Shown here: positions 1,982-55,426 of the stretch, piece after piece | Layout: every line of letters begins with the position of its first letter | Numbering within the stretch: position 1 is the stretch's first letter | Virus record (IMG/VR): IMGVR_UViG_3300020057_001229 | Coordinates: 1 to 64,000 of that record | DNA: 64,000 nucleotides | Direction: 5' to 3' (one strand) | DNA from: a virus | The notes under the pieces: model-generated | Told to the model about the DNA's origin: nothing | Seen by the model: the letters and a program-made list of their open reading frames with translations, nothing else | Databases searched by the model: none | Position numbers and translations under genes: made by a program

Positions 1982-3136
1982 TTCCTTCTGAAAGAAGCCC
2001 CCGTCCTCCGAGGGCGGGGATGAATTTCAGTTAGTTAAAACCTGAAATCAGTGTAATATAGTTCCATGTTTCTAACCTACAACTTCAGAGTCAAAGACGC
2101 TTCTACCAAGAACCTTCTGAAGAGAATGGCTTCTGACACAAACTTCGTTTGGAACTTTTCAAACAACATAGTCAAAGACAACTGGCAGAAATCTAGAAAA
2201 TATACCTCTAAGTATGATTTGAACCCTCTCTTAAAGGGAAGTTCTAAATACCTTAATATAAACTCGCAGACAATCCAAGCTGTAGCTCATGAATGTGTTT
2301 TGAGGACACAGAAAGCAAAGAAATAAGTCAGATTCAGAACCGCAAAAAGAAACTTGGGGTGGGTTCCAATAAACGGGCAGACCTTCAAACTCCAAGGCTC
2401 AACTCTCATTTATAATAAGAAATACTTCAAACTTTGGAAATCTAGAGACCTGCCTAAAGACGCCCTTATTAAAACAGGATGCTTCTCCCAAAACTCTGAA
2501 GGAAAGTGGTTTTGTAATATAACGTTTGAAACTAAGCTTCTAGCTCGGAAAGCCCCCGAAAGGGAAGTCGCTCTAGATCTCGGTTTAAAAACCCTCTACA
2601 CAACTTCAGACGGTTTAAAGTACGAACTGAGAGTTAATAACACTAAGAAATATGCTTTAAAGCTGGCTAAAGCGCAAAGAGCTAAGAAGAAAAAACAAGT
2701 TACTAAGATCCACACCAAAATTAAGAACTCTAGAAAAGACTGGAACCACAAAGAAACCACAAAACTAGCATCGAATTACAACCTTATTTTCGTCGGAGAC
2801 GTAAGTTCTAAGGCGCTGAAGAAAACTAAGATGGCGAAGTCTGTTTCAGACGTAGCCTGGTTTCAGTTTAAAACTTTCCTGAAGTATAAAGCTATTAAGC
2901 ACTCAGGAGAGATGCATGAAATTAAAGAAAGATTTTCCACAGTAACTTGCTCGGTTTGCCTGTCGAAGACAGGTCCGAGCGGACTAAGAAACTGTGGAGT
3001 AAGAGATTGGATATGCAGCGGTTGTGGCTCTAGCCATGACAGAGATACAAACGCTGCTTCAAACATTCTCCGTTTCGGGCATGAAACGCTTAACTTAAAA
3101 GGAATCCCACGGCTAAAGCCGTGGGGAGGATGTCAA
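1982..3136 (+). mobile_element. IS200/IS605-family (tnpB-only, IS1341-type) element
   Basis: Follows TTAG; left-end hairpin CCCCGTCCT-CCG-AGGGCGGGG; right end GGAATCCCACGGCTAAAGCCGTGGGGAGGATGTCAA; removing it restores ...PGTLKA* for the flanking minus-strand ORF. Confidence 0.9.
2066..3136 (+). pseudogene. tnpB: TnpB RNA-guided nuclease interrupted by an in-frame TAA at 2324-2326
   Basis: ORFs 2066-2326 and 2354- are in the same frame; TYNFR N-terminus, ALDLGLK, CSVC/CSGC zinc ribbon, HDRDTNAA. Confidence 0.9.
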
Positions 3137-9018: not shown

Positions 9019-9055
9019 TTGACATCCTCCCCACGGCTAAAGCCGGGGGATTCCT
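9019..9055 (-). mobile_element. Isolated IS200/IS605 right end
   Basis: AGGAATCCCCCGGCTTTAGCCGTGGGGAGGATGTCAA on the minus strand, closely matching 3100-3136. Confidence 0.8.
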
Positions 9056-10221: not shown

Positions 10222-10536
10222 ATATCAATAAAATTCAACCTTTGCACTTTTGCCAAACAACTTTTTGAGTCTCTCTTCCGACGCCTCTTTATCTTCTTCG
10301 GACCCCAACCGGGACCTTCGCCGTGGTACCGCTCGTGCTCTTCCAACAAGTCTGCCGCAGCGTAGATCTTGTTACCTAAGTCGTGCCTGATCTTGTCTAA
10401 TTCCTCAGCCGTGTATACTTCTTGAGCAGACGACCCTAAGCCAATTTGCTTACCATTACCTTGCTCCGCTTCAAGCTCGGCAACAGCCGGTAAGTCTTCT
10501 TCGTTATTCATTTTTCAAAGATCCTTAATTGAAGGT

Positions 10537-10579
10537 AAAAAGAAAGAACCCCGCTTCCTAGTCGGAGAGCGGGGTTCTT
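10537..10579 (-). terminator. Attenuator terminator upstream of the Ser/Thr tRNA operon
   Basis: AAGAACCCCGCT/AGCGGGGTTCTT 12-bp stem followed by TCTTTTT. Confidence 0.85.
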
Positions 10580-10605
10580 ATATCGTGCAAACACGCCGTA
10601 AGAAG

Positions 10606-10668
10606 TCACCCGCCCTCGGTCGTCGAGGAGGTTGAGCAGCTACTTGTCGTGGAAACGAAATTCTTCAT
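10606..10668 (-). promoter_or_regulatory. Ser/Thr-rich leader peptide MKNFVSTTSSCSTSSTTEGG
   Basis: 11 of 20 codons are Ser/Thr; its 3' end GAGGGCGGG..TTCTTA can pair with the terminator 5' arm. Confidence 0.85.
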
Positions 10669-12866: not shown

Positions 12867-13150
12867 GGCAAGACTCCTTAGGATACTTGGTCTCCGGCAT
12901 GAAGCTCCGAAATGGAGCTGTATAAGCCGCAGAACATTATGTAGGATGTAGTTACATTGGTAGGAGTTGCAAAGTCAATGGTAATCTTTAAAAGATATCG
13001 TTCGGCTCTTAAAAACTATGGTTCAACTATATGAGGCGAGTAGGCTACGTAGCCGTTTTATTCGCTGCTGTTTCAGCAGCTTGCTTCTTCCACCCCATAG
13101 TGGTCGGAGGTTTCGGCTACGCCTGCGTAGGATATCTGATCGGATATTAT

Positions 13151-13198
13151 CAAAACCCAGCGTAAAACCCCCGGCTTTAGCCGTGGGGAGGATGTCAA
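13151..13198 (+). mobile_element. 48-bp IS200/IS605 mini-element (left-end/right-end chimera, PATE-like)
   Basis: TTAT|CAAAACCCAGCGTAAAACCCCCGGCTTTAGCCGTGGGGAGGATGTCAA. Confidence 0.85.
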
Positions 13199-15805: not shown

Positions 15806-15850
15806 GAAACCTAATCTACACCAGATCTTCGTGGAGTCAAGACAACGCAA

Positions 15851-26966: not shown

Positions 26967-28106
26967 CTAAATTTGGACTCGGTGACATTGTGTTGACATT
27001 ATAGGATGTTGCTGAGCGTGAGGCTCAAGAACTTCGTTGTCGCCAGTCTCGAAAGGTGGCGTGGTCGTAGCGACCTTACACTCAAGAAGAACCCGTTCGA
27101 GGTCTTCCTCAGTTTCCAACTTGAAGAACCGATCGCCGGTTATCTTGTAGACCTTATCCCAGTCGATTTCCCGTAGCTGATACCTGCGTGGGACATCGTT
27201 TGGCACAGACATGTAGACGAATTCGGCGATGTCGAACGGCTTCTGAATGTTGGGTACAATAATACCTAGCCAGGCAAATCGTTTGATGGTTTTCAGTTTA
27301 TCAGCGTCTTTCTTTTGAACTTCCTTAAAAGCTTCCATGCCGAAAATTGGTTTGTAATGATGAATACCGTTGTACTCTAACACTATGTAGTAGTCCCCAA
27401 CCTTAATTACAGAATCGAATTCCCGCTCTCTGTTTCTATCTTTAACAGCTAGCGCCCCGACGAGCGTTGAAAGAGCGATTGTTGCTACAAGCTCTGGTCG
27501 AGTAGTGGACCTGTTGCGCTTCATATGCGAGCAAATATCATTTAGAATACCAAGCTTACAAGCGGCGCTATATTTGCCGGGACTACCTTCTTTGAAGGCT
27601 AATCTTGTCTCATATTTCAAGGCTTCAGCTTGAAGTGACTCTAAAGTGTGTTCCTTGTAACGAACAATCATATGCGAGCAAATATCAGGTATAATACCAC
27701 GCTTATGAGCGCTATAATATTCGCTGCGGCTACCTTCTTTGAAGGCTGCCATTGTCTCATATTTCAAGGCTTCAGCTTGAAGTGACTCTAAAGTGTGTAC
27801 CTTGTGCTGAGCAATCATATGCGAGCAAATATCATTTAGAATACCAAGCCTCCGAGCGGCGCTATATTCGGCGGGACTACCTCCTTGGAAGGCTGCCCTT
27901 GTCTCATATTTCAAGGCTTCAGCTTGAAGCGACTCTAAAGTGTGTTCCTTACGCTGAGCAATCATATGCGAGCAAATATCGTCTAGAATACCAAGCCTCC
28001 GAGCGGTACTATATTCGGCGGGACTACCTTTCGAGAAGCCTATCCTTGTCTCATATTTCAAGGCTTCAGCTTGAAGTGACTCTAAAGTGTGTTGTTTATT
28101 TGCCAC
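26967..28106 (-). CDS. Tandem-repeat protein with C-terminal PD-(D/E)xK/Vsr-like nuclease domain (putative homing endonuclease)
   Basis: Four 49-aa repeats, then EFD...LEYNGIHHY...QKKDADK. Confidence 0.7.
   Translation of the reverse strand: MANKQHTLESLQAEALKYETRIGFSKGSPAEYSTARRLGILDDICSHMIAQRKEHTLESLQAEALKYETRAAFQGGSPAEYSAARRLGILNDICSHMIAQHKVHTLESLQAEALKYETMAAFKEGSRSEYYSAHKRGIIPDICSHMIVRYKEHTLESLQAEALKYETRLAFKEGSPGKYSAACKLGILNDICSHMKRNRSTTRPELVATIALSTLVGALAVKDRNREREFDSVIKVGDYYIVLEYNGIHHYKPIFGMEAFKEVQKKDADKLKTIKRFAWLGIIVPNIQKPFDIAEFVYMSVPNDVPRRYQLREIDWDKVYKITGDRFFKLETEEDLERVLLECKVATTTPPFETGDNEVLEPHAQQHPIMSTQCHRVQI
27522..28091. repeat. Four tandem 147-bp coding repeats
   Basis: CATATGCGAGCAAATATC recurs at 27522, 27669, 27816 and 27963. 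Confidence 0.92.
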
Positions 28107-28253
28107 TAATGCGCTCCATAGGATTTCTTAAAATAATGAAGCGGTGAGAGCTGGTTGTCAAATTTGAAGAACTTGGAACACCAAATTAAAAGTTTGGTGC
28201 CCTCAAAATAAAATCAGGCAACAGTTGCCGTATACTTTTGTATTTTTTGAGAT

Positions 28254-28328
28254 TGGCGACCCTGGCAGGAATCCAACCTGCACGAAGGCGTTAGAAGCGC
28301 CTGATGCTATGCATTACATCACAGAGTC
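28254..28328 (-). tRNA. tRNA-Arg(UCU)
   Basis: Cloverleaf; loop CTTCTAA; atypical T-loop TTGGATT; CCA. Confidence 0.85.
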
Positions 28329-28380
28329 AATTGTTTGCTGAAGAGAGGGGAGTGCGAACGTAAGATGCAAACGCGGAAGG

Positions 28381-28440
28381 TTACACCCGCCTGCGTTTTG
28401 CCTTAGAGAAAGATCTTGAAGATGTAGAGAGAAAGAACAT
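28381..28440 (-). promoter_or_regulatory. Arg leader peptide MFFLSTSSRSFSKAKRRRV
   Basis: AGA plus tandem CGC AGG CGG; hairpin over the stop codon; ends ~50 nt upstream of tRNA-Arg. Confidence 0.7.
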
Positions 28441-28494
28441 AGTAGTACCTAGATATTCACGTATACAATTTAGTATATTGTCTTCTGGAAAAAA

Positions 28495-28950
28495 ATGTCA
28501 AAGGGAAATTTCATGGATTATCCAATAGCCACCGTCCGCGAGATCAACGGAGAACTTTTTCTCGACGATCCTACGGCGCTTGCCGTCATCAAAGCCACCA
28601 GCCGCGCCGCTTGCCGTAAGACGTTTGAGATGCAAAGAGACCGCGTAGAGCACTTCGTCACTCGCACCAGTGCGCTCAACCTTTCGACGGAAGATGTTGT
28701 CATCGTTTTAGCCAACGCCGATGACCCTAACGGCAAACAGCTCGCCGAAGCCCTCATGCCGAACCACGATTGGCAAGCTTACCGCAACCTAGGCGAGCTT
28801 CCCTTTGCTCGCGGGCTTGCTGAGAGGGAAGGCATCCAGTGGTTCATAGAGGATATGGAGCCTGACATGGCTTCGGTGCTCAAGAACCATGCTGGAGTTG
28901 CTGTAGTCGTCGTAGACCACGGCGTCATAGAAGTTCTTTCGCCGTCGTAA
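28495..28950 (+). CDS. Hypothetical protein
   Basis: ORF. Confidence 0.6.
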   Translation: MSKGNFMDYPIATVREINGELFLDDPTALAVIKATSRAACRKTFEMQRDRVEHFVTRTSALNLSTEDVVIVLANADDPNGKQLAEALMPNHDWQAYRNLGELPFARGLAEREGIQWFIEDMEPDMASVLKNHAGVAVVVVDHGVIEVLSPS

Positions 28951-28990
28951 GAGTAGTGGTAGGCTTTCTGAAATCCCAAAGGAGCGTCTA

Positions 28991-29263
28991 ATGACTGACA
29001 CCCGCGCCGAAGTTGATGCGGCATATGCGGCAATTGCAAAGAGCGAAGCGCGTTTAGCTGAGATTCGTGCAGCTTGTCCTCACACCAACTGCCGCATCGG
29101 AAACTATTCGTACCGCATCGGCAACGTCCAGCCTGTACGGCTTTGTAGCGATTGCGATCGCGTAGTGGGCGCTCTCTCGTATGAAGAATACACCGCTTGG
29201 GCAGGGAAAGAGCCTGTGTCAGCAGTAAGCACAACAACAACTAAGGTGTCTTATGGGTCGTAA
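28991..29263 (+). CDS. Small Cys-containing hypothetical protein
   Basis: GGAG SD; CPH..C, C..C. Confidence 0.6.
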   Translation: MTDTRAEVDAAYAAIAKSEARLAEIRAACPHTNCRIGNYSYRIGNVQPVRLCSDCDRVVGALSYEEYTAWAGKEPVSAVSTTTTKVSYGS

Positions 29264-29522
29264 GCGAGTTGTTCATTTCTCAACTTGGAACGTTTGCGTC
29301 AGCTTCGTCCCTGCGTGCAAGCTAGACTGGTGCTACAACCACGGCTTGTTTGAGGCTCCTCACACCGACGACGAAAGCGAAGTCACTTGCAAGCGTTGCT
29401 TGAAGCAACTTGCGGAGTGGGAGTCGATGGACTTTGAGTTCGTTGACCTCCCAGAGCCACAACCAAACGTAGAACTTCTTTCGTGGCTTGGGCACCCACC
29501 TAAAGACGGTAAAACGGCATGA
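29253..29522 (+). CDS. Hypothetical protein
   Basis: Coupled ORF; VTCKRC. Confidence 0.55.
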   Translation: MGRKRVVHFSTWNVCVSFVPACKLDWCYNHGLFEAPHTDDESEVTCKRCLKQLAEWESMDFEFVDLPEPQPNVELLSWLGHPPKDGKTA

Positions 29523-29839
29523 AAATTAATGTTGAGCAAGCAATCGCCTCCCGCAAGCTTTTGGCTGAACGACTACATGAGTTCTTCAAGGACCAACGTG
29601 GGAAAATGATCAGCAAGGCGCTTTTAGACCAAATGTACGGCGAACTCTACGTGTTGATCGAATCGATTAAGCAAGCAGACGTAGGCGGTATCCCGCTTGA
29701 GGCTCCTAAGTTCATGCTAAGGTTCGACGCTTTTAACAAAAGCATGTTAGAAGTGCTTCCTACCAATGAGTCTGCCGTATGGATGACAATGCTGTGGGAG
29801 ACACTAGACGGCGAACCACCACACGAAAGGCAGGCATAA
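29519..29839 (+). CDS. Hypothetical protein
   Basis: ATGA overlap with the previous ORF. Confidence 0.55.
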   Translation: MKINVEQAIASRKLLAERLHEFFKDQRGKMISKALLDQMYGELYVLIESIKQADVGGIPLEAPKFMLRFDAFNKSMLEVLPTNESAVWMTMLWETLDGEPPHERQA

Positions 29840-29997
29840 GTTTGGACATGGCGACTTGGACACTCGACACAGCCACATTCAAGATTTTGGATGATGCTGT
29901 GGAAGACACTAGACGGCGAACCAGCTACACCATGCGAAAGGCAAGCCTAAGTTTGGACATGGCGACTTTGACACTCGACACAGCCACATTCAAGATT
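29780..29997 (+). repeat. Imperfect ~108-bp tandem duplication of a gene junction
   Basis: AGACACTAGACGGCGAACCA and GACACTCGACACAGCCACATTCAAGATT each occur twice. Confidence 0.85.
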
Positions 29998-30430
29998 GTG
30001 GAAGAGCTGCGGCAGCTTCTGCTAGAGGGGCAACAACAGTTCAAGTTTGAAATGTTCAACGATCCTAAGTGCTACGGCTTTGATCTTGAAGTTGAAAGCT
30101 TTAAAGCGTCCGTCTATCTGTGGCACGAACTCAGCGCGATTGTCGTAGCTGTCTGCGGAGACGGAAGCGTCAAGAATTCAAAACAAGAGAAATTTCCGTT
30201 GATACACTTCTACGGCAAAGACACCGCCGTCGCAGAGTTCGTGCTCAAGAGTCTCGGTGCGCAGACCAAGTTCTCGCGCTGGAGTGACGCTCTTTGAAAG
30301 AGGCAGCTTGAGTTGCCCTAAAAATATATACTTTGCAAATCAACTAGTTACAAGCTTTACTTAAAGCTTTAAGATTAAATCCCGAGAAGTCTCCTGTTGG
30401 TGCCACGCACCACATCACAAAGGAGACCAG

Positions 30431-31162
30431 ATGCCAATCATCACTCGCAAGCAAGACGGCACCGAAGAGCTGACCTTCGTAGGTATGGTTCTTCAAGTCC
30501 ACGGTTACGTCTATATGGGTAACGACTGTGAGAAGGCGTTTGCTACGGTCTGGCTCGAAGCTGAGGGTCGCCCTAAGCGCGTCGGCTACAGCTCGCTCCA
30601 CTACGACTACGGTCAAGACCGCAACTCTGCCGTCATCGACGCCTCCCCAGAGATCAAGACCCTCTTCAACAACTGGTGTGCCGCCGAAGAGGCGCGCCAC
30701 GACGCAGAGGAAGCTGCTCGCCGCGAGCGCGAGTTCGGTCGCGGTAAGAAGGTCGTCGTCGCTCGCGGACGCAAGGTCCCTAAAGGCACCATCGGTGAAA
30801 TCTTCTGGATCGGTGACAACGGCTACGGCGAGTCGCTGGGGCTCTTCCTAGCTGACGGCACGAAGGTCTTCACGGCATCGAAGAACTGCGACATCATTCT
30901 TAAGAACGGTGTTGCTGAGCGTGCGGAAGGGGCGGCGTCCACTGAGACAGTCAAAGCTGAGTTCGCCAAAGGCGTCGGCGTCGAACTGAACGGCGAGCAG
31001 GGAACCATCTTCTGGATTGGGCAAGCAAAGAACGGCAGCGGCGTTCGTGTAGGCGTCGAATTTGCGGACGGCGACCGCCGCTTCTACGCACAGGAGCAGG
31101 TCGCAATTCCAGGTGCGCAAGTGCAGAAGAGCCTTGAGGCAAGCACGCAAGCACACCTCTGA
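30431..31162 (+). CDS. Hypothetical protein with a duplicated G.IFWIG beta-domain
   Basis: Strong AAGGAG SD; internal repeat. Confidence 0.75.
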   Translation: MPIITRKQDGTEELTFVGMVLQVHGYVYMGNDCEKAFATVWLEAEGRPKRVGYSSLHYDYGQDRNSAVIDASPEIKTLFNNWCAAEEARHDAEEAARREREFGRGKKVVVARGRKVPKGTIGEIFWIGDNGYGESLGLFLADGTKVFTASKNCDIILKNGVAERAEGAASTETVKAEFAKGVGVELNGEQGTIFWIGQAKNGSGVRVGVEFADGDRRFYAQEQVAIPGAQVQKSLEASTQAHL

Positions 31163-31473
31163 AAAGATCAGATGATGATCAGGCAGTTACCAGTCTTACT
31201 CTAAAGTCTTTAACCATTCGTCCGATAGAAGTCGTAACCACTCACAGAAGGCTTACCAATGAAAATCAAATTGGACCTAGACGATCGGCTCAAGTTAGAA
31301 AAGCTAGCGAAGCTAGAGGGCTTCTCGTCTGCATCTGAGTACGCCTGCTTTCTCTTGGATAGTGCTATGAACTCCCTCTTGGAGAAGGCTGGTGGTGACG
31401 AAGACTACGCCGCTCTACTTGGCGCGGAAGAACTCTTCGGGAAGCAACTCCGTCAATAAAGAGAGGCAAGAAA

Positions 31474-31872
31474 GTGAAGATCAAGCTTCAGGGGAACCTT
31501 CACGTTGCCCAAGAAGTCTTGAACGCCGTACAAGCTTTAGGCGTTCTCGACTCGTCGTTGCTGTGGGTGGAAGCCTACTCTAACGGGCGTGAGCAGGGCT
31601 TTGCGATCTTTCGTGCGACATCGAAAACAATGTCCGCCCGCTACATCATGTTCTCGGAATCTCGCGGCTCAGACCGCATCGTCATCTACGACAACGGCGA
31701 CAAGTCTCCCAACATGCAAGGCAACACGCCGTCTGAAGAGGCGTACAAAAAAGCGACGTACTTCGACTGCGGGCACTACACGCTCGCTGCCCAACACATC
31801 ATCGGTCTTCTCGAAGAAGTTCCTACGACACGGCTCCAACGCTGGACGCAGAACCTTTCCCTCTCCGACTAA
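31474..31872 (+). CDS. Hypothetical protein
   Basis: GAGG SD, GTG start. Confidence 0.6.
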   Translation: MKIKLQGNLHVAQEVLNAVQALGVLDSSLLWVEAYSNGREQGFAIFRATSKTMSARYIMFSESRGSDRIVIYDNGDKSPNMQGNTPSEEAYKKATYFDCGHYTLAAQHIIGLLEEVPTTRLQRWTQNLSLSD

Positions 31873-32360
31873 AAAGTCTAGACAAAAAGACCGCTACGGT
31901 TTAAAGGTGCAATACCTTCTCCTTCCATCGCTACCGTAAAGGTGCAGAGCAACCCGTCCCTTTCTATTTTTCAAGGCAGAAAGGGAAACGAAGTGAGCAC
32001 CATCTGGATGAAGCTGTTCAATAAGGTCGAAGAGGTAGCCAAGCCCTTCCTCGTCATTTCTGAAACCGCCACCTCGACCTGGCACTACCACTTCCGACTG
32101 GTAGGTCCCGAGGGCGCGGCAGCGCTATGCGGCGCGAAACTCGGATGGGACACGACGATGCCGCTCTCGACGTGGGGGCTCAAGGATCACATCCCGTCCC
32201 GCTACTGCGGAACATGCGAAAAGGAAGCGCGTGCTCGCGGTTTGTGGGCGGGGTGAAGCTTAAGCTCTGCGTCTGCGAGAAGACCGCTGACGACTAAAAA
32301 ATTCTCATCTACGCCTCGAAAAGTATTGACGAAGAGACCGTACTACGATACGGTTAATTT

Positions 32361-32414
32361 ATGCAATACTTTCTCCCTCCATTGCTACCCCTCCTGACCA
32401 AGCTCTTACCGTAA
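32361..32414 (+). promoter_or_regulatory. Leu/Pro leader peptide MQYFLPPLLPLLTKLLP
   Basis: 7 Leu and 4 Pro of 17 codons; TTGACG-N17-TACGGT promoter ending 6 nt upstream; hairpin over the stop codon. Confidence 0.85.
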
Positions 32415-32483
32415 AGGTAAAAGCAACACCGGTCCTATCTCCGTCTCTATTTTTCACCAGCTAAGTTTTTGAGGACAATCGTC

Positions 32484-32644
32484 ATGTTAAAATGACTCCA
32501 TATCAGTGTTCGTGCTGTGGCTCCAAGACGACGCTCCCAACGTTGGTTTGGTTGCCTGAAAAAGCGCCAGAGATAGTTAAGGTAGAATGTTTAAGGTGCG
32601 GGTTTGTGTGGTTGAAGCCGAAGGGCTTTAGTATCGTTCGATAA
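32484..32644 (+). CDS. Small zinc-ribbon protein
   Basis: CSCCG...CLRCG; GAGG SD; start approximate (zinc-ribbon frame begins at ATG 32492). Confidence 0.45.
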
Positions 32645-32645
32645 T

Positions 32646-32723
32646 CGGGCAGTGGGCTAATTGGTAAGCCGCTTGGTTTGGGACCAAGACATCATGCGAG
32701 TTCAAGTCTCGCCTGCCCGACCA
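32646..32723 (+). tRNA. tRNA-Pro(UGG)
   Basis: Cloverleaf; loop TTTGGGA; A73 + CCA. Confidence 0.93.
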
Positions 32724-32763
32724 CTTCCTTAGATTCGTTTGGGAACTCAAAAGGAGATCCCAA

Positions 32764-33129
32764 ATGTCTGACGACATAGAGAAAAAAAGAAAGTATTGGC
32801 GTGATTGGTACTACAGAAAGATGGATCAAGATCCTGAGTGGCGTAAAGCAGAATCAGAGCGGAATAGCGTCAAGCGCAAAGTTAAGAGGGACTGGTTAGT
32901 AGGGCTGAAAAAAAGTATGAAGTGCGCCAGATGTGATTTTTCAGATTTTAGGGCGTTGTGCTTCCATCACTCCGATCCTTCGCAGAAAAAGGGGGAGATC
33001 GCAAATATGATAAAAGAAAACTACGGCAAAGAGCGGATTTTGGAGGAGATGGCTAAGTGTGAAGTTCTGTGTCAGAATTGCCACCATATTGAACACTATG
33101 AACAGCGTACACAGTCTAAAGTCGCATAA
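32764..33129 (+). CDS. Free-standing HNH endonuclease
   Basis: CARC...LCFHH.DP..K...KCEVLCQNCH. Confidence 0.85.
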   Translation: MSDDIEKKRKYWRDWYYRKMDQDPEWRKAESERNSVKRKVKRDWLVGLKKSMKCARCDFSDFRALCFHHSDPSQKKGEIANMIKENYGKERILEEMAKCEVLCQNCHHIEHYEQRTQSKVA

Positions 33130-33359
33130 ATATCTTTTGAGTCTCGTGTGGTGGTGAAACTGGTTTACTTAGGATTGGGGGGAGAGAAGTAGGGCATCTA
33201 TAGGTTCTATAGGACCATTTTCACCTACTTCTCAAAGGGCTTTTTCAATGGCATATTTCAACGGTTTCGTTAGCGGCGTTCTATTTGGTCTCGGACTTTT
33301 CGTCGCTTCTGTGTTAGTACAGGCATTGTTCCATATGCCTTTGCTTGGGTAAATCTTCC

Positions 33360-33444
33360 GCTGGCATGGTGGAATTGGTAGACACATCAGTCTGAGAGGC
33401 TGACGGGGAAACTTGTGCAGGTTCGAGTCCTGTTGCCAGCACCA
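33360..33444 (+). tRNA. tRNA-Leu(GAG)
   Basis: Long variable arm; loop CTGAGAG; A73 + CCA. Confidence 0.93.
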
Positions 33445-33462
33445 TGTTTAGAAGAGAGTTCT

Positions 33463-33861
33463 GTGGAAATTAAAGGCACGCTAGCGGGTTGGTTTGAGAC
33501 TGGTTCTGAAGGTACCTATTGGACCCTTCAAGATGAGAAACACATCGACGACAAAGGCATGTACTCCTACGAAGGGATGCATGTACTAAAAAGCGGTATG
33601 CAGCTAGTTATCCACTATCCAAAGTCAGATAAAGTCTATTGGGAAGGTCAGCTTGTTCTCGTTCCGGGTTACGATCCGAAACTTTTGAAAAAGCTAGGGT
33701 TGCATTACTACGTAAAAAAGCATCCGTCAGGGCTTAAGCAGCTCTCACTCGGCGGCTACTGGATACATAATTTACCGGTCGGGTTTGATTTAGCAATTTG
33801 GTACCGGATCTTCTTTCTCGACGAAGGTTGGACCGGGACCTTAACCTTAATTAAGGACTAG
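33463..33861 (+). CDS. Hypothetical protein
   Basis: GTG start after the tRNA; FETGSEG.YW. Confidence 0.65.
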   Translation: MEIKGTLAGWFETGSEGTYWTLQDEKHIDDKGMYSYEGMHVLKSGMQLVIHYPKSDKVYWEGQLVLVPGYDPKLLKKLGLHYYVKKHPSGLKQLSLGGYWIHNLPVGFDLAIWYRIFFLDEGWTGTLTLIKD

Positions 33862-33864
33862 CTG

Positions 33865-34101
33865 ATGCTACGAATGACGTTAGGTGCCAAAGCATATCTT
33901 GCGGGAAAAGCTCTTACGACGCCGCTGCTCAATGATCCCGTAGGTGATGAAGTGATACGCAGGCTCGACAAAGAGGATAGTGACGATCAGTTCGATGCTT
34001 ACATGATGTCTTTAGGCGACGGTGCTTCGCCCGACGACGTAGAGCTTACAGACGAAGAGTTAGACGAGTTGCGAAGAAGCAGTGAAGAGTACGAAGACTA
34101 A
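33865..34101 (+). CDS. Acidic hypothetical protein
   Basis: AAGGA SD. Confidence 0.55.
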   Translation: MLRMTLGAKAYLAGKALTTPLLNDPVGDEVIRRLDKEDSDDQFDAYMMSLGDGASPDDVELTDEELDELRRSSEEYED

Positions 34102-34102
34102 A

Positions 34103-34186
34103 GGACCGATGATGGAATGGTAGACATGTCAGTTTCAAAAGCTGATGCTGTAAGGTGTGAGGGTTCAAGTCCCTCTCGGTCCACCA
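34103..34186 (+). tRNA. tRNA-Leu(CAA)
   Basis: Long variable arm; loop TTCAAAA; A73 + CCA. Confidence 0.93.
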
Positions 34187-34279
34187 TAGCGGGGACGTGG
34201 TGAAATCGATAGACGAAAAGGGCAGACTTACCCATAATGAAAACGACTATTCTAACCACTTCTCATAAAGAAGAGTGCC

Positions 34280-34566
34280 ATGCAACAGCTCATTAACATG
34301 TTTGTTGGGAATCTTCCAAAACGAGTGTCTACCATTCGAGAAGCACAAGAAAGTGGGGACCTAGCAGAGGTTCAAAATTTAGCACATCAGATGTTGGGAT
34401 GTGCTGAAGGTTACGGCTTCCCTCAGTTAGGGCAAGTAGCAAGCAAGCAAGCAAGCTCGAAGCACTAATAAAAGACCATGGCAGCGAGCATAGCATCGAG
34501 TTGATGATTAATGCATTCGATGCCCAATGCCACTGCATTATCATCAGGCATGGTAATAGGCACTGA
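34280..34566 (+). pseudogene. Hpt (histidine phosphotransfer) protein frameshifted at (GCAA)4
   Basis: LAHQMLGCAEGYGFPQL motif; continuation KLEALIK... lies in another frame ending at 34566. Confidence 0.8.
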
Positions 34567-34569
34567 AAT

Positions 34570-34654
34570 GGGGACGTGGTGAAATTGGTAGACACACCGC
34601 GCTTAGAATGCGGCGATGAAAGTCATGTCGGTTCAAGTCCGACCGTCCCCACCA
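34570..34654 (+). tRNA. tRNA-Leu(UAG)
   Basis: Long variable arm; loop CTTAGAA; A73 + CCA. Confidence 0.93.
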
Positions 34655-34683
34655 CTTTAAGTTAGCAAAACACATATCTCTAA

Positions 34684-34759
34684 GTCCACGTAATCCAACG
34701 GCAGAGATAGAGCGCTTAAAACGCTTCCAGCGTGGGTTCGAATCCCACCGTGGACACCA
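34684..34759 (+). tRNA. tRNA-Leu(UAA) with short variable loop
   Basis: 76-nt cloverleaf; loop CTTAAAA; A73 + CCA. Confidence 0.88.
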
Positions 34760-34840
34760 ATTTTTTATCCGAAGTATCAAGGCGCTCCGTTTTAGGCTAG
34801 ACTCTATACGGAATTGCCCTCTCATACAAAGGTTTTAAAA

Positions 34841-35134
34841 ATGGAAACCAACTTCGCTAAACTTAATGATTTAATTGCCGATCATCTCATGGACGGCGAC
34901 GTTGCAAACTATTCTAATGATGCTGCTGACGCTATTCTTATTGTTAAGAAGTTCCGCATGGACTTCATAGCTAATTTGACTGTCACCGACCATATGACCT
35001 TTATCACCTTAACGCATCTTTTAGAAACTAACAGAACTGTCACTATTAAAGAGCACAAGGCTGAAATGAGTGACCCCATCGCTACAGCCATTTGCAAAGC
35101 GTACTTAGCTATCCACGAGATCGAGTACGATTAG
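34841..35134 (+). CDS. Hypothetical phage protein
   Basis: YS.D..DA..IV...AICKA.L pattern; ATG at 34841. Confidence 0.6.
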   Translation: METNFAKLNDLIADHLMDGDVANYSNDAADAILIVKKFRMDFIANLTVTDHMTFITLTHLLETNRTVTIKEHKAEMSDPIATAICKAYLAIHEIEYD

Positions 35135-35197
35135 CACTCCCCGATATGCCAAAGCTATTGTTGACACCTCCCATCATTTCGGACGTGCTGGTGACAC

Positions 35198-35329
35198 GTT
35201 CGGTTCCCCCATGTAGGTCTTACAAGCACTGTAAATGCCGTTGCGTTGGTTCGAACCCAACCCTCCCGGTAACGGGGGGTAGCTCAGTTGGTAGAGCACG
35301 AAATTTAGCCCTATAACCTTGAACCGAAC
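35198..35329 (+). ncRNA. YrlA-type Y RNA (tRNA mimic), copy 1
   Basis: Terminal stem GTTCGGTTC/GAACCGAAC; T-arm, loop-closed acceptor stem and D-arm in permuted order. Confidence 0.8.
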
Positions 35330-35373
35330 TTCACCCACCGCAAGGTGGGTGTCCTCTTTCTGGAGATATTTAT

Positions 35374-35422
35374 CAAAACCCAGCGTAAAACCCCCTGCTT
35401 TAGCCGTGGGGATATAAGCTGG
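35374..35422 (+). mobile_element. Isolated IS200/IS605 left end
   Basis: TTAT|CAAAACCCAGCGTAAAACCCCCTGCTTTAGCCGTGGGGATATAAGCTGG. Confidence 0.75.
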
Positions 35423-35556
35423 CATTAAAACTAGTGCTAATATATATCATATTTACCTTAGCTGGTGCTGTAGGTGGTGGCATCGTCTTCGGCAGCAAAA
35501 GGTTAGGCAAGTGCTTAGCCATCGTCGAGTTTCCGTCCCGTCGAAAGTCACGCCGT

Positions 35557-35830
35557 CTTAGGCGTCATTCTGCGGTTGGGCTGTCGCCACTGTCTCAAAA
35601 AACAGCGCGGTTTTTATGCGCGCACGAGCAAGGTGTTTGAGGTGACCGTTTCGAGTCGTAATTGTCTCAATTCGGGCTATCTGCGATGGACGGGGTACCG
35701 CCATTTCTCGATGATTTTGAACGTCCGCGCAACCCCAATGGCAACAAGAGCAAGTGGCACCCGAGCAAATGTTGACAATATCTCAGTAATATCTATGTGT
35801 TGTCATCCCAACCGTAGAATGACGCCTAAG
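35557..35830. mobile_element. 274-bp MITE with 24-bp TIRs and 8-bp target-site duplication
   Basis: TIR CTTAGGCGTCATTCT(G/A)CGGTTGGG (23/24); CACGCCGT on both sides. Confidence 0.85.
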
Positions 35831-36005
35831 CACGCCGTAGTACACCCGCAGGTAGAGCCTTTTACAAAGCGAGTTCGGGGATCGCTTCGTTCTTTACGTT
35901 CTTTCAGATCTTCGTCGTGAACTTCAAGAAGGATCATTGTCCTTCCATTGAATGGGACGACTAAGAGATGTAAGCTGGAACTTCATATTCACAAAGGAGT
36001 TCTAG

Positions 36006-36320
36006 ATGTCCGAAGTAAAGAACAATGACCTCGCCTCGCATATTCCCGATAGCAAAATTACCTTCGTCGATTTTTGGGCTCCGTGGTGCGGACCCTGCAA
36101 AGGGCTTACGCCTATCCTTGAAGGCTTAGAAAAAGAAAACCCTGACAAGATGAAGCTCGTCAAGGTCAACATCGAAGACAACCAAGAGCTGTCTGAAAAG
36201 TTTGGTATCCGCACCGTCCCTACGATCATTGTCTACAAAGACGGTCAAGAAAAGCAGCGGATCATCGGCTCAAAACCTAAAAAGTTTTGGGAAGAGATCC
36301 TGACCGCTGATGACTTTTAG
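36006..36320 (+). CDS. trxA: Thioredoxin
   Basis: DFWAPWCGPCK; IRTVPT. Confidence 0.95.
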   Translation: MSEVKNNDLASHIPDSKITFVDFWAPWCGPCKGLTPILEGLEKENPDKMKLVKVNIEDNQELSEKFGIRTVPTIIVYKDGQEKQRIIGSKPKKFWEEILTADDF

Positions 36321-37111
36321 TCGATGTAGTAAGTTCCCTGAAACTCTATGGTCTTATTGAACGGAGCCGACGTTGCAATGGCTACGCCGGAGACTACGGC
36401 GGCAGAGTTATCAATTACCTCTGCGATACGAAGACTTGTACTTGCGTTAGCAATAAAAAGATCGGCTTGAATGGTTGTCGCACCGAGGTCGATGTTCGAG
36501 AGGTACGTTGGAATTGGCGATCTGCCGCCTAAGGTAATAGCAGCATAAGGAGCGCCGTTTATTTGAAATGATACCGATCCACCGGTTGCAGCCGACCACA
36601 CTACGAGTCCGTAAAGAAAAACGGCTTTTTCGGTGCGGAGGTAGTAGCCGACTTGGGACACGTAGACTACGCCAGTGTAGGCACCTGAGCTTCCGGTGAT
36701 GCTCGGCGTCCAAGTTCCAGACTCTACGACCTCTTCCACCCACCAATGCGCTGGCGTGGTGGGGTTGTCTTGCAGAGCTATCACTTGAACACGCCCTGCT
36801 CTAATCGCTGCCAAGCCTCCTGAGCCACCTGCACTAGTAAGTGACGTGCCGTTGCTAGCTTTGATGTCAAGAACGAAGTTAGAGCGGTTCACAAACTTGA
36901 AGCAGCGCCCTTGCTTGACCGTCTTAGTGTCGGGGTCTGTAGAGGGAAGCGTTACGGCACGGTTTGCCGAGATGTTGAAATAATGGATATCGTTTGCTGT
37001 CGATAAAAGCGTGATGTCGGAATCCGCTTGAAAAGAAGCTTTGTGACCGAGACCTGTATAGCCATCGGGGAACTGAGCTATGGTGCTTAACGCCCCAGGT
37101 ATAATTGCCAT
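36317..37111 (-). CDS. Putative virion (tail-fibre/decoration-like) protein
   Basis: MAIIPGA N-terminus shared with the adjacent ORF; EVVESGTWTP beta-rich C-terminus. Confidence 0.6.
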   Translation of the reverse strand: MAIIPGALSTIAQFPDGYTGLGHKASFQADSDITLLSTANDIHYFNISANRAVTLPSTDPDTKTVKQGRCFKFVNRSNFVLDIKASNGTSLTSAGGSGGLAAIRAGRVQVIALQDNPTTPAHWWVEEVVESGTWTPSITGSSGAYTGVVYVSQVGYYLRTEKAVFLYGLVVWSAATGGSVSFQINGAPYAAITLGGRSPIPTYLSNIDLGATTIQADLFIANASTSLRIAEVIDNSAAVVSGVAIATSAPFNKTIEFQGTYYID

Positions 37112-37157
37112 TTTAAATACTCCTTATATCATTACGAATACAGTCAATTTTCCAGGC

Positions 37158-38330
37158 TTACAATTCGGCTGAATTGCTTATTACAGTGGTTATGAGGTAC
37201 AAAGACGCACCACCCGTCAGTCCGTGTGTGGTTTTCGCTGCTTGAATAAGAATTGCGTCCACCCCAAGGGTGTAGGTACTGAATGTAAAACCTGTTTGCG
37301 ACACTCCTTGTAAATTCGCAACAGAGATGTCGGTATCTGCAACGCCGTAGTTTACGACTCCAATCGCTCTCATTGGTGCGAACGAGTAGGAAAAGTAGAT
37401 GTTGTTAGACGACTGCTCGACCTGACTGATGCGGCGAGATAACCCTGACCCACCCCATACTTGAAAATAACGCTGACAGAGATCGAACTCTGCTTGGATA
37501 CTTACGCCTGTGCGACTAAACGGCACGGCAGCCGCAGGTACCGTAGAGAAGTCTCCAGGGCAAAGAGACATTTGAGCAATTCGGAACGTAGCTCCCGTAG
37601 TTGCAGCCCAATCAACGCATCCCGTAGGTCCGTTTGCAGAAGACGCTATCCAACTGTTTGTGGTGCTTGCTTGGAAGTTGGTTCCTAGACTTAAGTTTAT
37701 CAAGATGTAGAGACCAAGACTGTTGTCAAATATCCATGTACCTGTCGTGTCAAAGGTCAAATCTATCGCTTTTAGTTCCCAGGTGTTTGCGGCATTGATT
37801 GTAAACTTTGTAAGATAAGCCCGTGTCGAACCGTTGCCGAGACCTAAGCTGTAGTCGCCGGTTATAGACGCCTTTACCCAAAAGCTAAGCCTTGCAGGAC
37901 GACCATGTAGCTCTTGGAGGTTGTAGCCTTCGAGCCTGTGTTGGACTTGTGTGAAGCCGCCAACGGCGGTGGCAGCTCCGGTTCCGTTCGTGAACAGGGC
38001 ACTGTACACGCTTTGGTAGCCTGACTCGGCTAGTGTCGGTACGTCCGTCGAGCGTGTGGCTGTGGTTGTGTGGGCAGAATCCACAACTAAACGAAGACGG
38101 TCGGCGGTGTAACCGTTCGTGTTTGAGATAGTGAAAGACGTTCCCCGCTGCCAAAAGTCCATGTTTCCGTTGATTAGCTGATTTCGACGGGGAGCTTGTG
38201 AGACATAAGTGAAGGCTCCGGTCGAAGTCGTACTTACAAGAGATCCGGCAGGTAAAGTTGTTGCCGTCGTAAGCTGCGTGCCTGAGGGAAGTTGAGCTGG
38301 CGCACCTATCGCTCCGGGTATAATTGCCAT
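37158..38330 (-). CDS. Putative tail-fibre-associated protein
   Basis: RRNQLINGNMDFWQRG, YTADR, E..LCQRYF motifs common in phage fibre proteins. Confidence 0.7.
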   Translation of the reverse strand: MAIIPGAIGAPAQLPSGTQLTTATTLPAGSLVSTTSTGAFTYVSQAPRRNQLINGNMDFWQRGTSFTISNTNGYTADRLRLVVDSAHTTTATRSTDVPTLAESGYQSVYSALFTNGTGAATAVGGFTQVQHRLEGYNLQELHGRPARLSFWVKASITGDYSLGLGNGSTRAYLTKFTINAANTWELKAIDLTFDTTGTWIFDNSLGLYILINLSLGTNFQASTTNSWIASSANGPTGCVDWAATTGATFRIAQMSLCPGDFSTVPAAAVPFSRTGVSIQAEFDLCQRYFQVWGGSGLSRRISQVEQSSNNIYFSYSFAPMRAIGVVNYGVADTDISVANLQGVSQTGFTFSTYTLGVDAILIQAAKTTHGLTGGASLYLITTVISNSAEL

Positions 38331-52141: not shown

Positions 52142-52194
52142 GGTTGACGAGTTCTGTGAGAGCTGCTAGGATTTGGGTAATGGGAGTTCACAAA

Positions 52195-52236
52195 ATGTTC
52201 CGTTCCGTAAATAACAATAATGAAGAAACAAGCTAG
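52195..52236 (+). promoter_or_regulatory. Asn/Glu leader peptide MFRSVNNNNEETS
   Basis: GGGAG SD; promoter TTGACG-N17-TAGGAT; four tandem Asn codons. Confidence 0.88.
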
Positions 52237-52261
52237 GGTCGAAAGTCCTTTCTGGCTTACG

Positions 52262-52290
52262 ACCCGTTTGGTAACCCAAGCGGGTTTTTT
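52262..52290 (+). terminator. Attenuator terminator upstream of tRNA-Asn
   Basis: ACCCGTTTGG-TAAC-CCAAGCGGGT plus T-tract. Confidence 0.88.
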
Positions 52291-52307
52291 ATTTGTATCG
52301 AATTTAT

Positions 52308-53202: not shown

Positions 53203-53290
53203 GGGAGAGTAGCCTATCGGCACGAGGCAGCGGCTTGTTAAGCCGCCAGTGGACGTAAGTCCGAAGTGGGTTCGATTCCCACCTCTCCCT
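53203..53290 (+). tRNA. Atypical tRNA with GUU anticodon and long variable arm, no CCA
   Basis: GGGAGAG/CTCTCCC acceptor, GCGGC-TTGTTAA-GCCGC, TGGAC-GTAA-GTCCG arm, GTGGG-TTCGATT-CCCAC. Confidence 0.75.
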
Positions 53291-53316
53291 CTTTTTTTCT
53301 ATAAGGAATTTTCGAT

Positions 53317-53358
53317 ATGCTGTTTCGACTAGAAGAAGAACAAATTAATTCGGGCTGA
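53317..53358 (+). promoter_or_regulatory. Glu leader peptide MLFRLEEEQINSG
   Basis: AAGGA SD; GAA GAA GAA; 3' TCGGGC is complementary to the terminator 5' arm. Confidence 0.88.
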
Positions 53359-53385
53359 GAGAGTCGGTAACGACAACTCTTTTAT

Positions 53386-53412
53386 GCCCGATCTTTGGAT
53401 CGGGCTTTTTTT
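53386..53412 (+). terminator. Attenuator terminator upstream of the tRNA-Glu pair
   Basis: GCCCGATC-TTTG-GATCGGGC-TTTTTTT. Confidence 0.9.
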
Positions 53413-53416
53413 ATGT

Positions 53417-55378: not shown

Positions 55379-55426
55379 TTGACATCCTCCCCACGGCTAA
55401 AGCAGGGGGTTTTACGCTGAGTTTCG
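55379..55426 (-). mobile_element. 48-bp IS200/IS605 mini-element (second copy)
   Basis: TTAT|CGAAACTCAGCGTAAAACCCCCTGCTTTAGCCGTGGGGAGGATGTCAA on the minus strand. Confidence 0.85.

Follow-up and report, generated by a model that had tools for sequence, protein, structure and literature searches.

Can a virus that carries its own tRNA genes set their output by how well the matching codons are being decoded? The question is raised by a short open reading frame (ORF), hereafter the mini-ORF, in IMG/VR virus record IMGVR_UViG_3300020057_001229 (88,687 bp). Positions 1-64,000 of this record form the stretch of 64,000 nucleotides that was analysed, called the window below, and all coordinates refer to it. 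The mini-ORF is rich in Leu and Pro codons and stands ahead of a unit made up of one tRNA-Pro gene and four tRNA genes with Leu anticodons, the only Pro/Leu tRNA unit. We give about even weight to the reading that it is a codon-matched translated leader, or sensor, for this tRNA unit. The case is built mainly on the position of the mini-ORF, its Leu and Pro density, a promoter-like motif shared with other tRNA units and clearer attenuators elsewhere in the same genome.

A Leu/Pro mini-ORF ahead of a Pro/Leu tRNA unit

The leader comprises the following features.

32326-32331 and 32349-32354, plus strand: promoter-like site, TTGACG and TACGGT separated by 17 nt
32337-32354, no strand assigned: inverted repeat ACCGTA / TACGGT, spanning the spacer and the second hexamer
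32361-32363 (ATG) to 32412-32414 (TAA), plus strand: mini-ORF encoding MQYFLPPLLPLLTKLLP and a stop, 17 codons, 7 Leu and 4 Pro
32368-32447, plus strand: C-rich, G-poor stretch, C minus G of 21 in 80 nt
32402-32410 and 32416-32424, plus strand: stop-codon hairpin, GCTCTTACC / GGTAAAAGC, 8 of 9 positions paired with one C-A mismatch
32446-32456, plus strand: TCTATTTTTCA, containing a T run and kept in both copies of the module described below

Leu is encoded by three CTC codons and one each of TTG, CTA, CTG and TTA, and Pro by CCT, CCA, CCC and CCG. Past the ATG, 11 of the 16 codons specify Leu or Pro, and the ORF ends in Leu-Pro-stop. These codons are exactly those listed in a first-pass annotation of this DNA, and several of its other observations were confirmed. 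The ATG lies 6 nt past the second hexamer (the -10), and the stop codon sits in a hairpin with a pyrimidine tract behind it, the strand that follows being rich in C and T. As had also been reported, no canonical intrinsic terminator is present: a terminator scan of 32415-32645 returned only a weak 5-pair stem at 32529-32545, inside a downstream ORF of 50 amino acids (aa).

The first-pass annotation had gone on to read the variety of codons as a sign that loss of single isoacceptors is sensed. This step was not supported, as the variety is within chance under the codon usage of the phage, with p = 0.085 for four distinct Pro codons in four draws and p = 0.33 for at least five distinct Leu codons in seven draws. 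The broader proposal of a leader-type mini-ORF for the Pro/Leu tRNA unit keeps its support from promoter geometry, Leu and Pro density and the sister leaders described below, without the isoacceptor step.

Leu and Pro codons are concentrated in the mini-ORF

The six-frame translation of the whole record holds a single place where at least 10 of 12 codons specify Leu or Pro, and this is the mini-ORF. Compared with random 450-nt regions on both strands, its Leu and Pro density gave p = 0.002-0.012 with windows of 6, 10 and 14 codons. A rule set in advance was also applied to the heads of all tRNA units. A tRNA counted as a head if the 450 nt before it contained no further tRNA; the tRNAs at most 2.2 kb downstream formed its cognate set, and density was scored in windows of 12 codons. 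By this rule the Pro/Leu head reached p = 0.0024, the Ser/Thr head p = 0.0048 and the Asn/Glu head p = 0.0143. The remaining five of the eight heads gave p = 0.39-0.92, and Fisher's combined p was 0.005. To credit all tRNA units of this genome with a cognate mini-ORF would thus go too far. When a roughly threefold correction is allowed for the choice among Leu, Pro or both, p is near 0.01.

When the local sequence was shuffled with its dinucleotides preserved, 1 and 5 trials out of 5000 matched the density. Complete ORFs, from start to stop, with 11 or more Leu and Pro codons arose more often in these shuffles (93 and 52 trials out of 5000). The bias is confined to the frame of the mini-ORF, the other two frames giving 2 and 5 Leu or Pro codons over the same stretch. 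Twelve codons in the frame have pyrimidines at their first two positions, and just one of these specifies Ser or Phe (p = 0.029).

The unit-head test and a test of each tRNA by itself were run on loci of Erwinia phage Kaldavass, Ralstonia phage RSP15 and Aeromonas phage phiA8-29 as controls. None of their 32 tRNAs reached p < 0.1 when tested singly, and one of their 14 unit heads reached p < 0.05 (p = 0.043). The flat controls in these three loci indicate that the test is not lax and that the pattern is not universal among phages.

A promoter-like motif is common to several tRNA units

The usual +1 position of the promoter-like site coincides with the A of the ATG at 32361. From this spacing between hexamer and ATG, the transcript carrying the mini-ORF would be leaderless. 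The motif TTGACN-N16-18-TANNNT has 12 matches in the record, six of which fall in the 14.8% of non-genic space left by a crude gene caller (p = 0.004). Four of the 12 head tRNA units, one directly in front of tRNA-Met and the others in front of the Arg, Pro/Leu and Asn mini-ORFs (p = 4e-6). As the motif is common to other tRNA units, the site at 32326-32354 is credible despite its weak second hexamer. The inverted repeat ACCGTA / TACGGT within it could act as an operator or fold as a 5' hairpin.

Mini-ORFs at other tRNA units

All 15 tRNA genes of the record lie inside the 64-kb window, and they are grouped by amino acid into three Ser with Thr, Pro with four Leu, and two Asn with two Glu. Such grouping suits control unit by unit. 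Mini-ORFs precede three further units.

10668-10606, minus strand: mini-ORF encoding MKNFVSTTSSCSTSSTTEGG and a stop, ahead of the Ser/Thr tRNA unit (region 10525-10668)
52195-52236, plus strand: mini-ORF encoding MFRSVNNNNEETS and a stop, ahead of tRNA-Asn (region 52144-52307)
53317-53358, plus strand: mini-ORF encoding MLFRLEEEQINSG and a stop, ahead of the tRNA-Glu pair (region 53317-53416)

In each of these the 3' end of the mini-ORF forms a stem arm that competes with a GC-rich terminator stem followed by a U run, and folds constrained by a ribosome gave switching pairings in all three leaders. NNNN occurs nowhere in the six-frame translation of the record except in the Asn mini-ORF. Its leader has a promoter-like site (TTGACG-17-TAGGAT) and a Shine-Dalgarno sequence (SD), and a GGGUCG..CGACCC stem competes with a terminator that ends in six U. 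The Asn, Glu and Ser/Thr leaders are clearer examples of attenuators than the Leu/Pro leader.

Three further observations were made at tRNA genes of the window. A mini-ORF encoding MFFLSTSSRSFSKAKRRRV and a stop at 28381-28440 (minus strand) lies 52 nt before tRNA-Arg(TCT), with a strong promoter-like TTGACA-18-TATACT upstream; its stop codon is in a hairpin loop and its Arg content is within chance (p = 0.83-0.96). At 15813-15840 (minus strand) a promoter-like TTGACT-16-TAGATT ends 8 nt before tRNA-Met (15805), which, judging from this arrangement, appears to be transcribed without a leader. The second tRNA-Asn(GTT), at 53203-53291 (plus strand), was called by ARAGORN at 89 nt, unusually long for tRNA-Asn.

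RNA features of the Leu/Pro leader

The loop of the stop-codon hairpin, GTAAA, contains the stop itself, and the 5' arm consists of the final Leu-Leu-Pro codons. The hairpin folds at about -9.4 kcal/mol once the GCU/AGC closing pairs are counted. Ranked by C minus G among all windows of 80 nt, both strands taken together, the stretch at 32368-32447 falls in the highest 0.08%. This composition is similar to that of a Rho loading site and is largely due to the CTN and CCN codons for Leu and Pro. Further on, TCTATTTTTCA has no stem before it and is thus not an intrinsic terminator. The TCTATTTTTCA region pairs weakly in folds with the SD at 32471-32475, and a weak pairing between UUUUCA and the SD of the next ORF (GAGGA) persists in ribosome-constrained folds.

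A duplex search with the 3' arm of the hairpin, extended to the end of tRNA-Pro, gave no pairing with the tRNA-Pro acceptor stem. The best duplex in that range (-13.3 kcal/mol) lies at about 32599, inside the 50-aa ORF, and was taken for chance.

The downstream Pro/Leu tRNA unit

Downstream of the leader, the unit is arranged as follows.

32471-32475, plus strand: SD, GAGGA
32484-32495, plus strand: 3-codon ORF, ATG-TTA-AAA-TGA, correctly spaced from GAGGA
32492-32644, plus strand: 50-aa ORF with two CxxC pairs, in the interval between leader and tRNA-Pro
32646-32723, plus strand: tRNA-Pro(TGG), 61.5 bits, the first tRNA of the unit
32764-33129, plus strand: HNH gene
33360-33444, plus strand: tRNA with anticodon GAG
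34103-34186, plus strand: tRNA with anticodon CAA
34570-34654, plus strand: tRNA with anticodon TAG
34684-34759, plus strand: tRNA with anticodon TAA

The TGA of the 3-codon ORF overlaps the ATG of the 50-aa ORF (ATGA), and a GTCAT/ATGAC hairpin covers the start region. The stop of the mini-ORF and the start of the 50-aa ORF are 77 nt apart. The product of the 50-aa ORF is likely a zinc ribbon, judging from its CxxC pairs and a weak match to Pfam Zn_ribbon_TFIIS (E = 0.015). Searches returned no homologue for it, and the protein itself is missing from a collection of 5.8 billion proteins. Small ORFs are scattered among the four tRNAs with Leu anticodons (33360-34759).

All five tRNAs of the unit reach the Rfam gathering score for tRNA. 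The earlier count of four tRNA-Leu genes downstream thus stands as far as anticodons and scores go, but the Leu identity of the UAA-anticodon tRNA is uncertain, with the anticodon as its only basis. This tRNA is 76 nt long and of class I, with a 3-pair D stem, and it has no long variable arm, which a bacterial tRNA-Leu would be expected to have.

Three minor features were seen within and behind the unit. An (AGCA)n tract lies at 34437-34455 (plus strand), near the end of an ORF with an Hpt domain; in a contig from another microbial-mat run (X3, depth 4.9) 8 nt are missing at 34438, so the length of the tract varies in nature or in assembly. Just past the tRNA unit, 35244-35297 (plus strand) resembles the Y-RNA-like family YrlA below threshold (28.8 bits, where the gathering score is 69), and a terminator-like stem follows it at 35332-35351. 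In the Rfam search of 28000-38000, tRNA was the only family above threshold.

A second copy of the module precedes a protein gene

The module as a whole occurs a second time, in diverged form, upstream of the leader.

31860-31990, plus strand: copy A, between a 132-aa ORF and an 87-aa ORF (31993-32256)

The ORF of copy A runs from GTG at 31907 to TAA at 31937-31939 and encodes the 10 residues VQYLLLPSLP. Its start lies 6 nt from TACGGT, the same distance as in copy B (the mini-ORF at 32361). Relative to copy B, 21 nt between TACC repeats are missing from copy A, an indel that is in frame. In both copies the ORF opens with a start codon (ATG or GTG), stays in frame despite the indel and ends in Leu-Pro-stop, with its stop codon placed in a GTAAA loop. 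The stop-codon hairpin of copy A has a shorter stem with the loop unchanged, its inverted repeat is reduced to ACCG-CTA-CGGT, and the C-rich, G-poor composition is absent. In addition, a perfect 8-pair hairpin in copy A (CCCTTTCT at 31958-31965 with AGAAAGGG at 31978-31985) begins 19 nt past the leader stop and masks the SD of the 87-aa ORF.

An nhmmer search of the whole 88.7-kb record with a profile of the two copies returned no further copy, and BLASTP gave no alignment between the 87-aa and 50-aa proteins. The pair of copies is compatible both with a translated leader and with a conserved RNA or DNA module, and it is the main support for the latter.

Evidence weighing against a translated leader

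Several findings weigh against a translated leader. At the promoter-like site, TACGGT agrees with TATAAT at three of six positions, and a standard sigma-70 scan did not list the site. No SD-like 4-mer is present at -20 to -4 of the ATG; such 4-mers precede 68 of 122 crude gene starts, compared with 18% of random 17-mers. Translation of the mini-ORF, if any, would thus be that of a leaderless mRNA. The RNA has neither an intrinsic terminator in the scanned range nor predicted mutually exclusive structures; in folds constrained by a ribosome on the stop or on a Pro codon, the small hairpin alone is altered. Fold z-scores were -2.0 over 146 nt and -0.9 over 296 nt.

The codon statistics also depend on how the question is put. 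Scored for Leu alone (7 of 17), the mini-ORF ranks seventh among 227 intergenic mini-ORFs, and enrichment for a single amino acid is frequent among small ORFs. The test of each tRNA by itself, which scored one amino acid in 8-codon windows over the 300 nt upstream, gave p = 0.36 for Pro, and the leader lies beyond 300 nt of every Leu tRNA. Against random 450-nt regions, the Arg unit (p = 0.83-0.96) and the Met unit (p = 0.99) were not enriched, and Glu scored alone gave p = 0.21-0.62. As to distance, tRNA-Pro is 231 nt from the mini-ORF with a likely protein ORF intervening, and the first Leu tRNA is 945 nt away, beyond the HNH gene.

Copy A adds to these points. It precedes a protein gene, starts with GTG, and has its hexamers, TAGACA and TACGGT, 10 nt apart. 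Identity between the copies is 32/38 upstream, 30/33 in the ORF and 33/39 downstream. The ORF is thus no more alike than its flanks, and the comparison gives the mini-ORF no extra conservation. Apart from ATG to GTG, all three differences in the shared ORF are nonsynonymous (Phe to Leu, Pro to Leu and Leu to Ser). Close relatives, with which conservation of the leader could be compared, were found neither in IMG/VR nor among GenBank phages nor in the collection of 5.8 billion proteins.

Possible mechanism of a Leu/Pro sensor

We infer three things: that the mini-ORF is translated, that stalling is the signal, and that an output step follows. Transcription would start at or beside the A of the ATG and yield a leaderless mRNA. 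Ribosomes would decode the seven Leu and four Pro codons, and their dwell time would set onward transcription, or downstream translation, toward the tRNA genes. A slow or stalled ribosome would cover the C-rich leader RNA and so keep off a termination factor such as Rho, and one that finishes quickly would leave this RNA bare. As an alternative output, the SD of the next small ORF would be unmasked. Given that an intrinsic terminator and a predicted switch are both absent, shielding by the ribosome from a factor such as Rho is the most likely output. We assign the Rho step about half of the weight that the sensor reading itself receives. The fit of the leader to Rho is one of composition only, and the Rho step, like isoacceptor sensing, is conjecture.

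A more specific version, which we regard as unlikely, makes the leader a leaderless, terminator-free gauge of tRNA supply. Slow passage of a ribosome over Leu or Pro codons, or its arrest at Pro-stop, would shield a Rho site and permit read-through into the five tRNAs. The leader would be one of several amino-acid-specific gates, and the phage would replace a tRNA family only once that family falls short, as when a host anticodon nuclease has cleaved it. A bolder extension concerns the pairing of Pro with Leu. Pro tRNAs and the Leu tRNAs that read CUN share G36 and m1G37, to the extent that the abstract of PMC6335274 covers this. A gate shared by Pro and CUN-Leu might then report damage to this G36/m1G37 class of tRNA.

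Alternative explanations

The two copies can be explained in another way, as a generic duplicated promoter and 5' untranslated region. The CU-rich RNA would then be an anti-SD or protein-binding tract that tunes the 87-aa and 50-aa ORFs, the mini-ORF would be untranslated and its placement before tRNA genes coincidental. We consider this somewhat unlikely. It accounts for the fact that each copy directly precedes an ORF for a small CxxC protein, and for the pairings at the start sites of these ORFs, with the 8-pair hairpin masking the SD of the 87-aa ORF in copy A and CCUC or UUUUCA pairing with GAGGA in copy B. The lack of an SD for the mini-ORF, the amino acid changes at all three non-start differences of the shared ORF, and flanks as conserved as the ORF also fit. 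It requires, however, a coincidence at p = 0.002-0.012 in a genome that has codon-matched mini-ORFs at three other tRNA units. An anti-SD tract needs neither a Leu/Pro bias in one frame nor the avoidance of Ser and Phe codons, yet both are found, and start codon, frame and stop are retained in both copies. The explanation also overlaps with that of a translated leader, which could work by opening just such pairings.

That the mini-ORF is a chance ORF without regulatory role, in a pyrimidine-rich intergenic tract produced by local duplication, seems quite improbable to us. Small ORFs often show one-amino-acid enrichments of similar size, the variety of codons does not exceed chance, and a 21-nt indel between TACC repeats keeps the frame with probability 1/3. 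The duplication could be fairly recent, in which case the similarity of the copies need not reflect selection. The density of Leu and Pro together is nevertheless unique in the genome and seldom matched by local shuffles, the unit-head test is significant with flat controls in other phages, and the promoter-like motif is common to other tRNA units. Very improbable, in our estimate, is a small hydrophobic peptide that acts by itself, for example in a membrane, and not as a sensor. The 17-residue product is hydrophobic, and the same Pro/Leu unit holds a hydrophobic 34-aa ORF at 33248-33352. The product of copy A has just 10 residues, however, and four prolines in 17 residues would speak against a membrane helix.

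Relation to known systems

The Leu/Pro leader is most likely an atypical form of ribosome-mediated attenuation applied to phage tRNA genes, a view in which we have about even confidence. Classical attenuators include trpL, hisL, leuL, thrL, ilvL, pheL and, for pheST, pheM, which are short ORFs rich in codons of the amino acids served downstream. Some, such as those of thr and ilv, combine codons of two or more amino acids. The Leu/Pro mini-ORF resembles these leaders in its enrichment for codons cognate to the regulated unit. It differs in lacking their SD, pause hairpin, antiterminator and intrinsic terminator, and in having tRNA genes as its targets. The Asn, Glu and Ser/Thr leaders of the same phage, unlike the Leu/Pro leader, have the classical layout. 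The principle of a leader-peptide attenuator is stated in the abstract of PMC1183508.

A closer parallel may be tnaC. In the account of tnaC given in PMC12360218, a ribosome arrested at the final codon, one for Pro, keeps Rho away from the neighbouring Rho utilisation (rut) site; the leader senses free tryptophan in the ribosome exit tunnel and stalls at the stop codon. Like the Leu/Pro leader, tnaC as described there is a short leader ORF with no intrinsic terminator behind it and with Pro as its last sense codon, and the RNA beside its stop is C-rich and could be protected against Rho by a stalled ribosome. The proposed signal of the Leu/Pro leader is slow decoding of Leu and Pro codons and not tryptophan. 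In addition, tnaC has an SD and controls catabolic genes, whereas the Leu/Pro leader is predicted to be leaderless and precedes tRNA genes, and Rho, rut and boxA features are putative here.

The mgtL and corL leaders of Salmonella mgtA and corA are also similar, as short upstream ORFs in which proline codons set ribosome progress and thereby access of Rho (PMC12360218, including the title of Gall et al. 2016). In that account alternative stem-loops mask or expose rut and the targets are Mg2+ transporter genes, whereas no alternative stem-loops are predicted in the Leu/Pro leader. In ermC, ermB and cat, a leader ORF stands before a paired SD that a stalled ribosome could free, an arrangement that copy A fits; the principle is given for erm in PMC8274638. 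Stalling in those systems needs a drug and a specific peptide, and in copy B no alternative pairing is predicted to join the leader to the SD hairpin.

A literature search, with older subscription papers and supplements outside its reach, found no paper on leader-peptide control of tRNA genes. Attenuator-like leaders were reportedly discussed in the 1980s for the E. coli tRNA-Phe genes, and a search of the pheU and pheV literature gave nothing on this. Phage tRNA genes are discussed as a route to survive tRNA-cutting host defences in PMC10264068 and PMC11555353, the abstracts of which do not address how the timing of phage tRNA production is decided. If the sensor reading is true, ribosome-based attenuation extends from amino-acid genes to tRNAs, and it needs neither an SD nor an intrinsic terminator. 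The element is about 130 nt long and might be of use for sensing how selected codons are decoded. Its value as a single case is limited by the clearer Asn, Glu and Ser/Thr examples in the same genome and by its conjectural output step.

The record and its genomic context

The record is labelled a provirus, with an estimated completeness of 32%, and every public run in which it occurs is a microbial-mat metagenome; a look for RNA runs among them gave none. Genes in the window encode, among others, an HNH endonuclease, thymidylate synthase, a TnpB-like protein, a hybrid histidine kinase, an Hpt domain and thioredoxin. Contigs covering the leader in four other microbial-mat runs have the same sequence as the window, so that no natural variation can be read from them.

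The searches for kin covered several proteins and the locus itself. No relatives of the 132-aa, 87-aa and 1049-aa proteins were found among IMG/VR viral contigs, a homologue search with the 132-aa protein returned itself alone, and the 1049-aa protein had no tblastn match among GenBank phages. In a blastn search of 31800-34800 against phages, the only matches were tRNA genes. An exact-pattern search of viral contigs for the block common to both copies gave one match (L002), which lies within a coding region with no tRNA nearby and was taken for chance. A subtilisin-like protease is about 30% identical to Bacillus phage proteins, which is uninformative on host or kin. As the only hint to the host, a scan of genome contigs found the TnpB-like protein 27% identical to one in a metagenome-assembled genome of Nostocaceae; we do not name a host from it.

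Two kinds of repeat were also observed in the window. At 27521-28092 a 147-nt unit occurs three times in tandem (84-86% identity), within a 379-aa ORF on the minus strand. GC-rich hairpins of the type CCCCACGGC-TAAA-GCCGTGGGG recur in both orientations at 3095-3128, 9019-9052, 13147-13189, 35370-35412 and 55379-55412, and these are probably phage terminators or a protein-binding hairpin.

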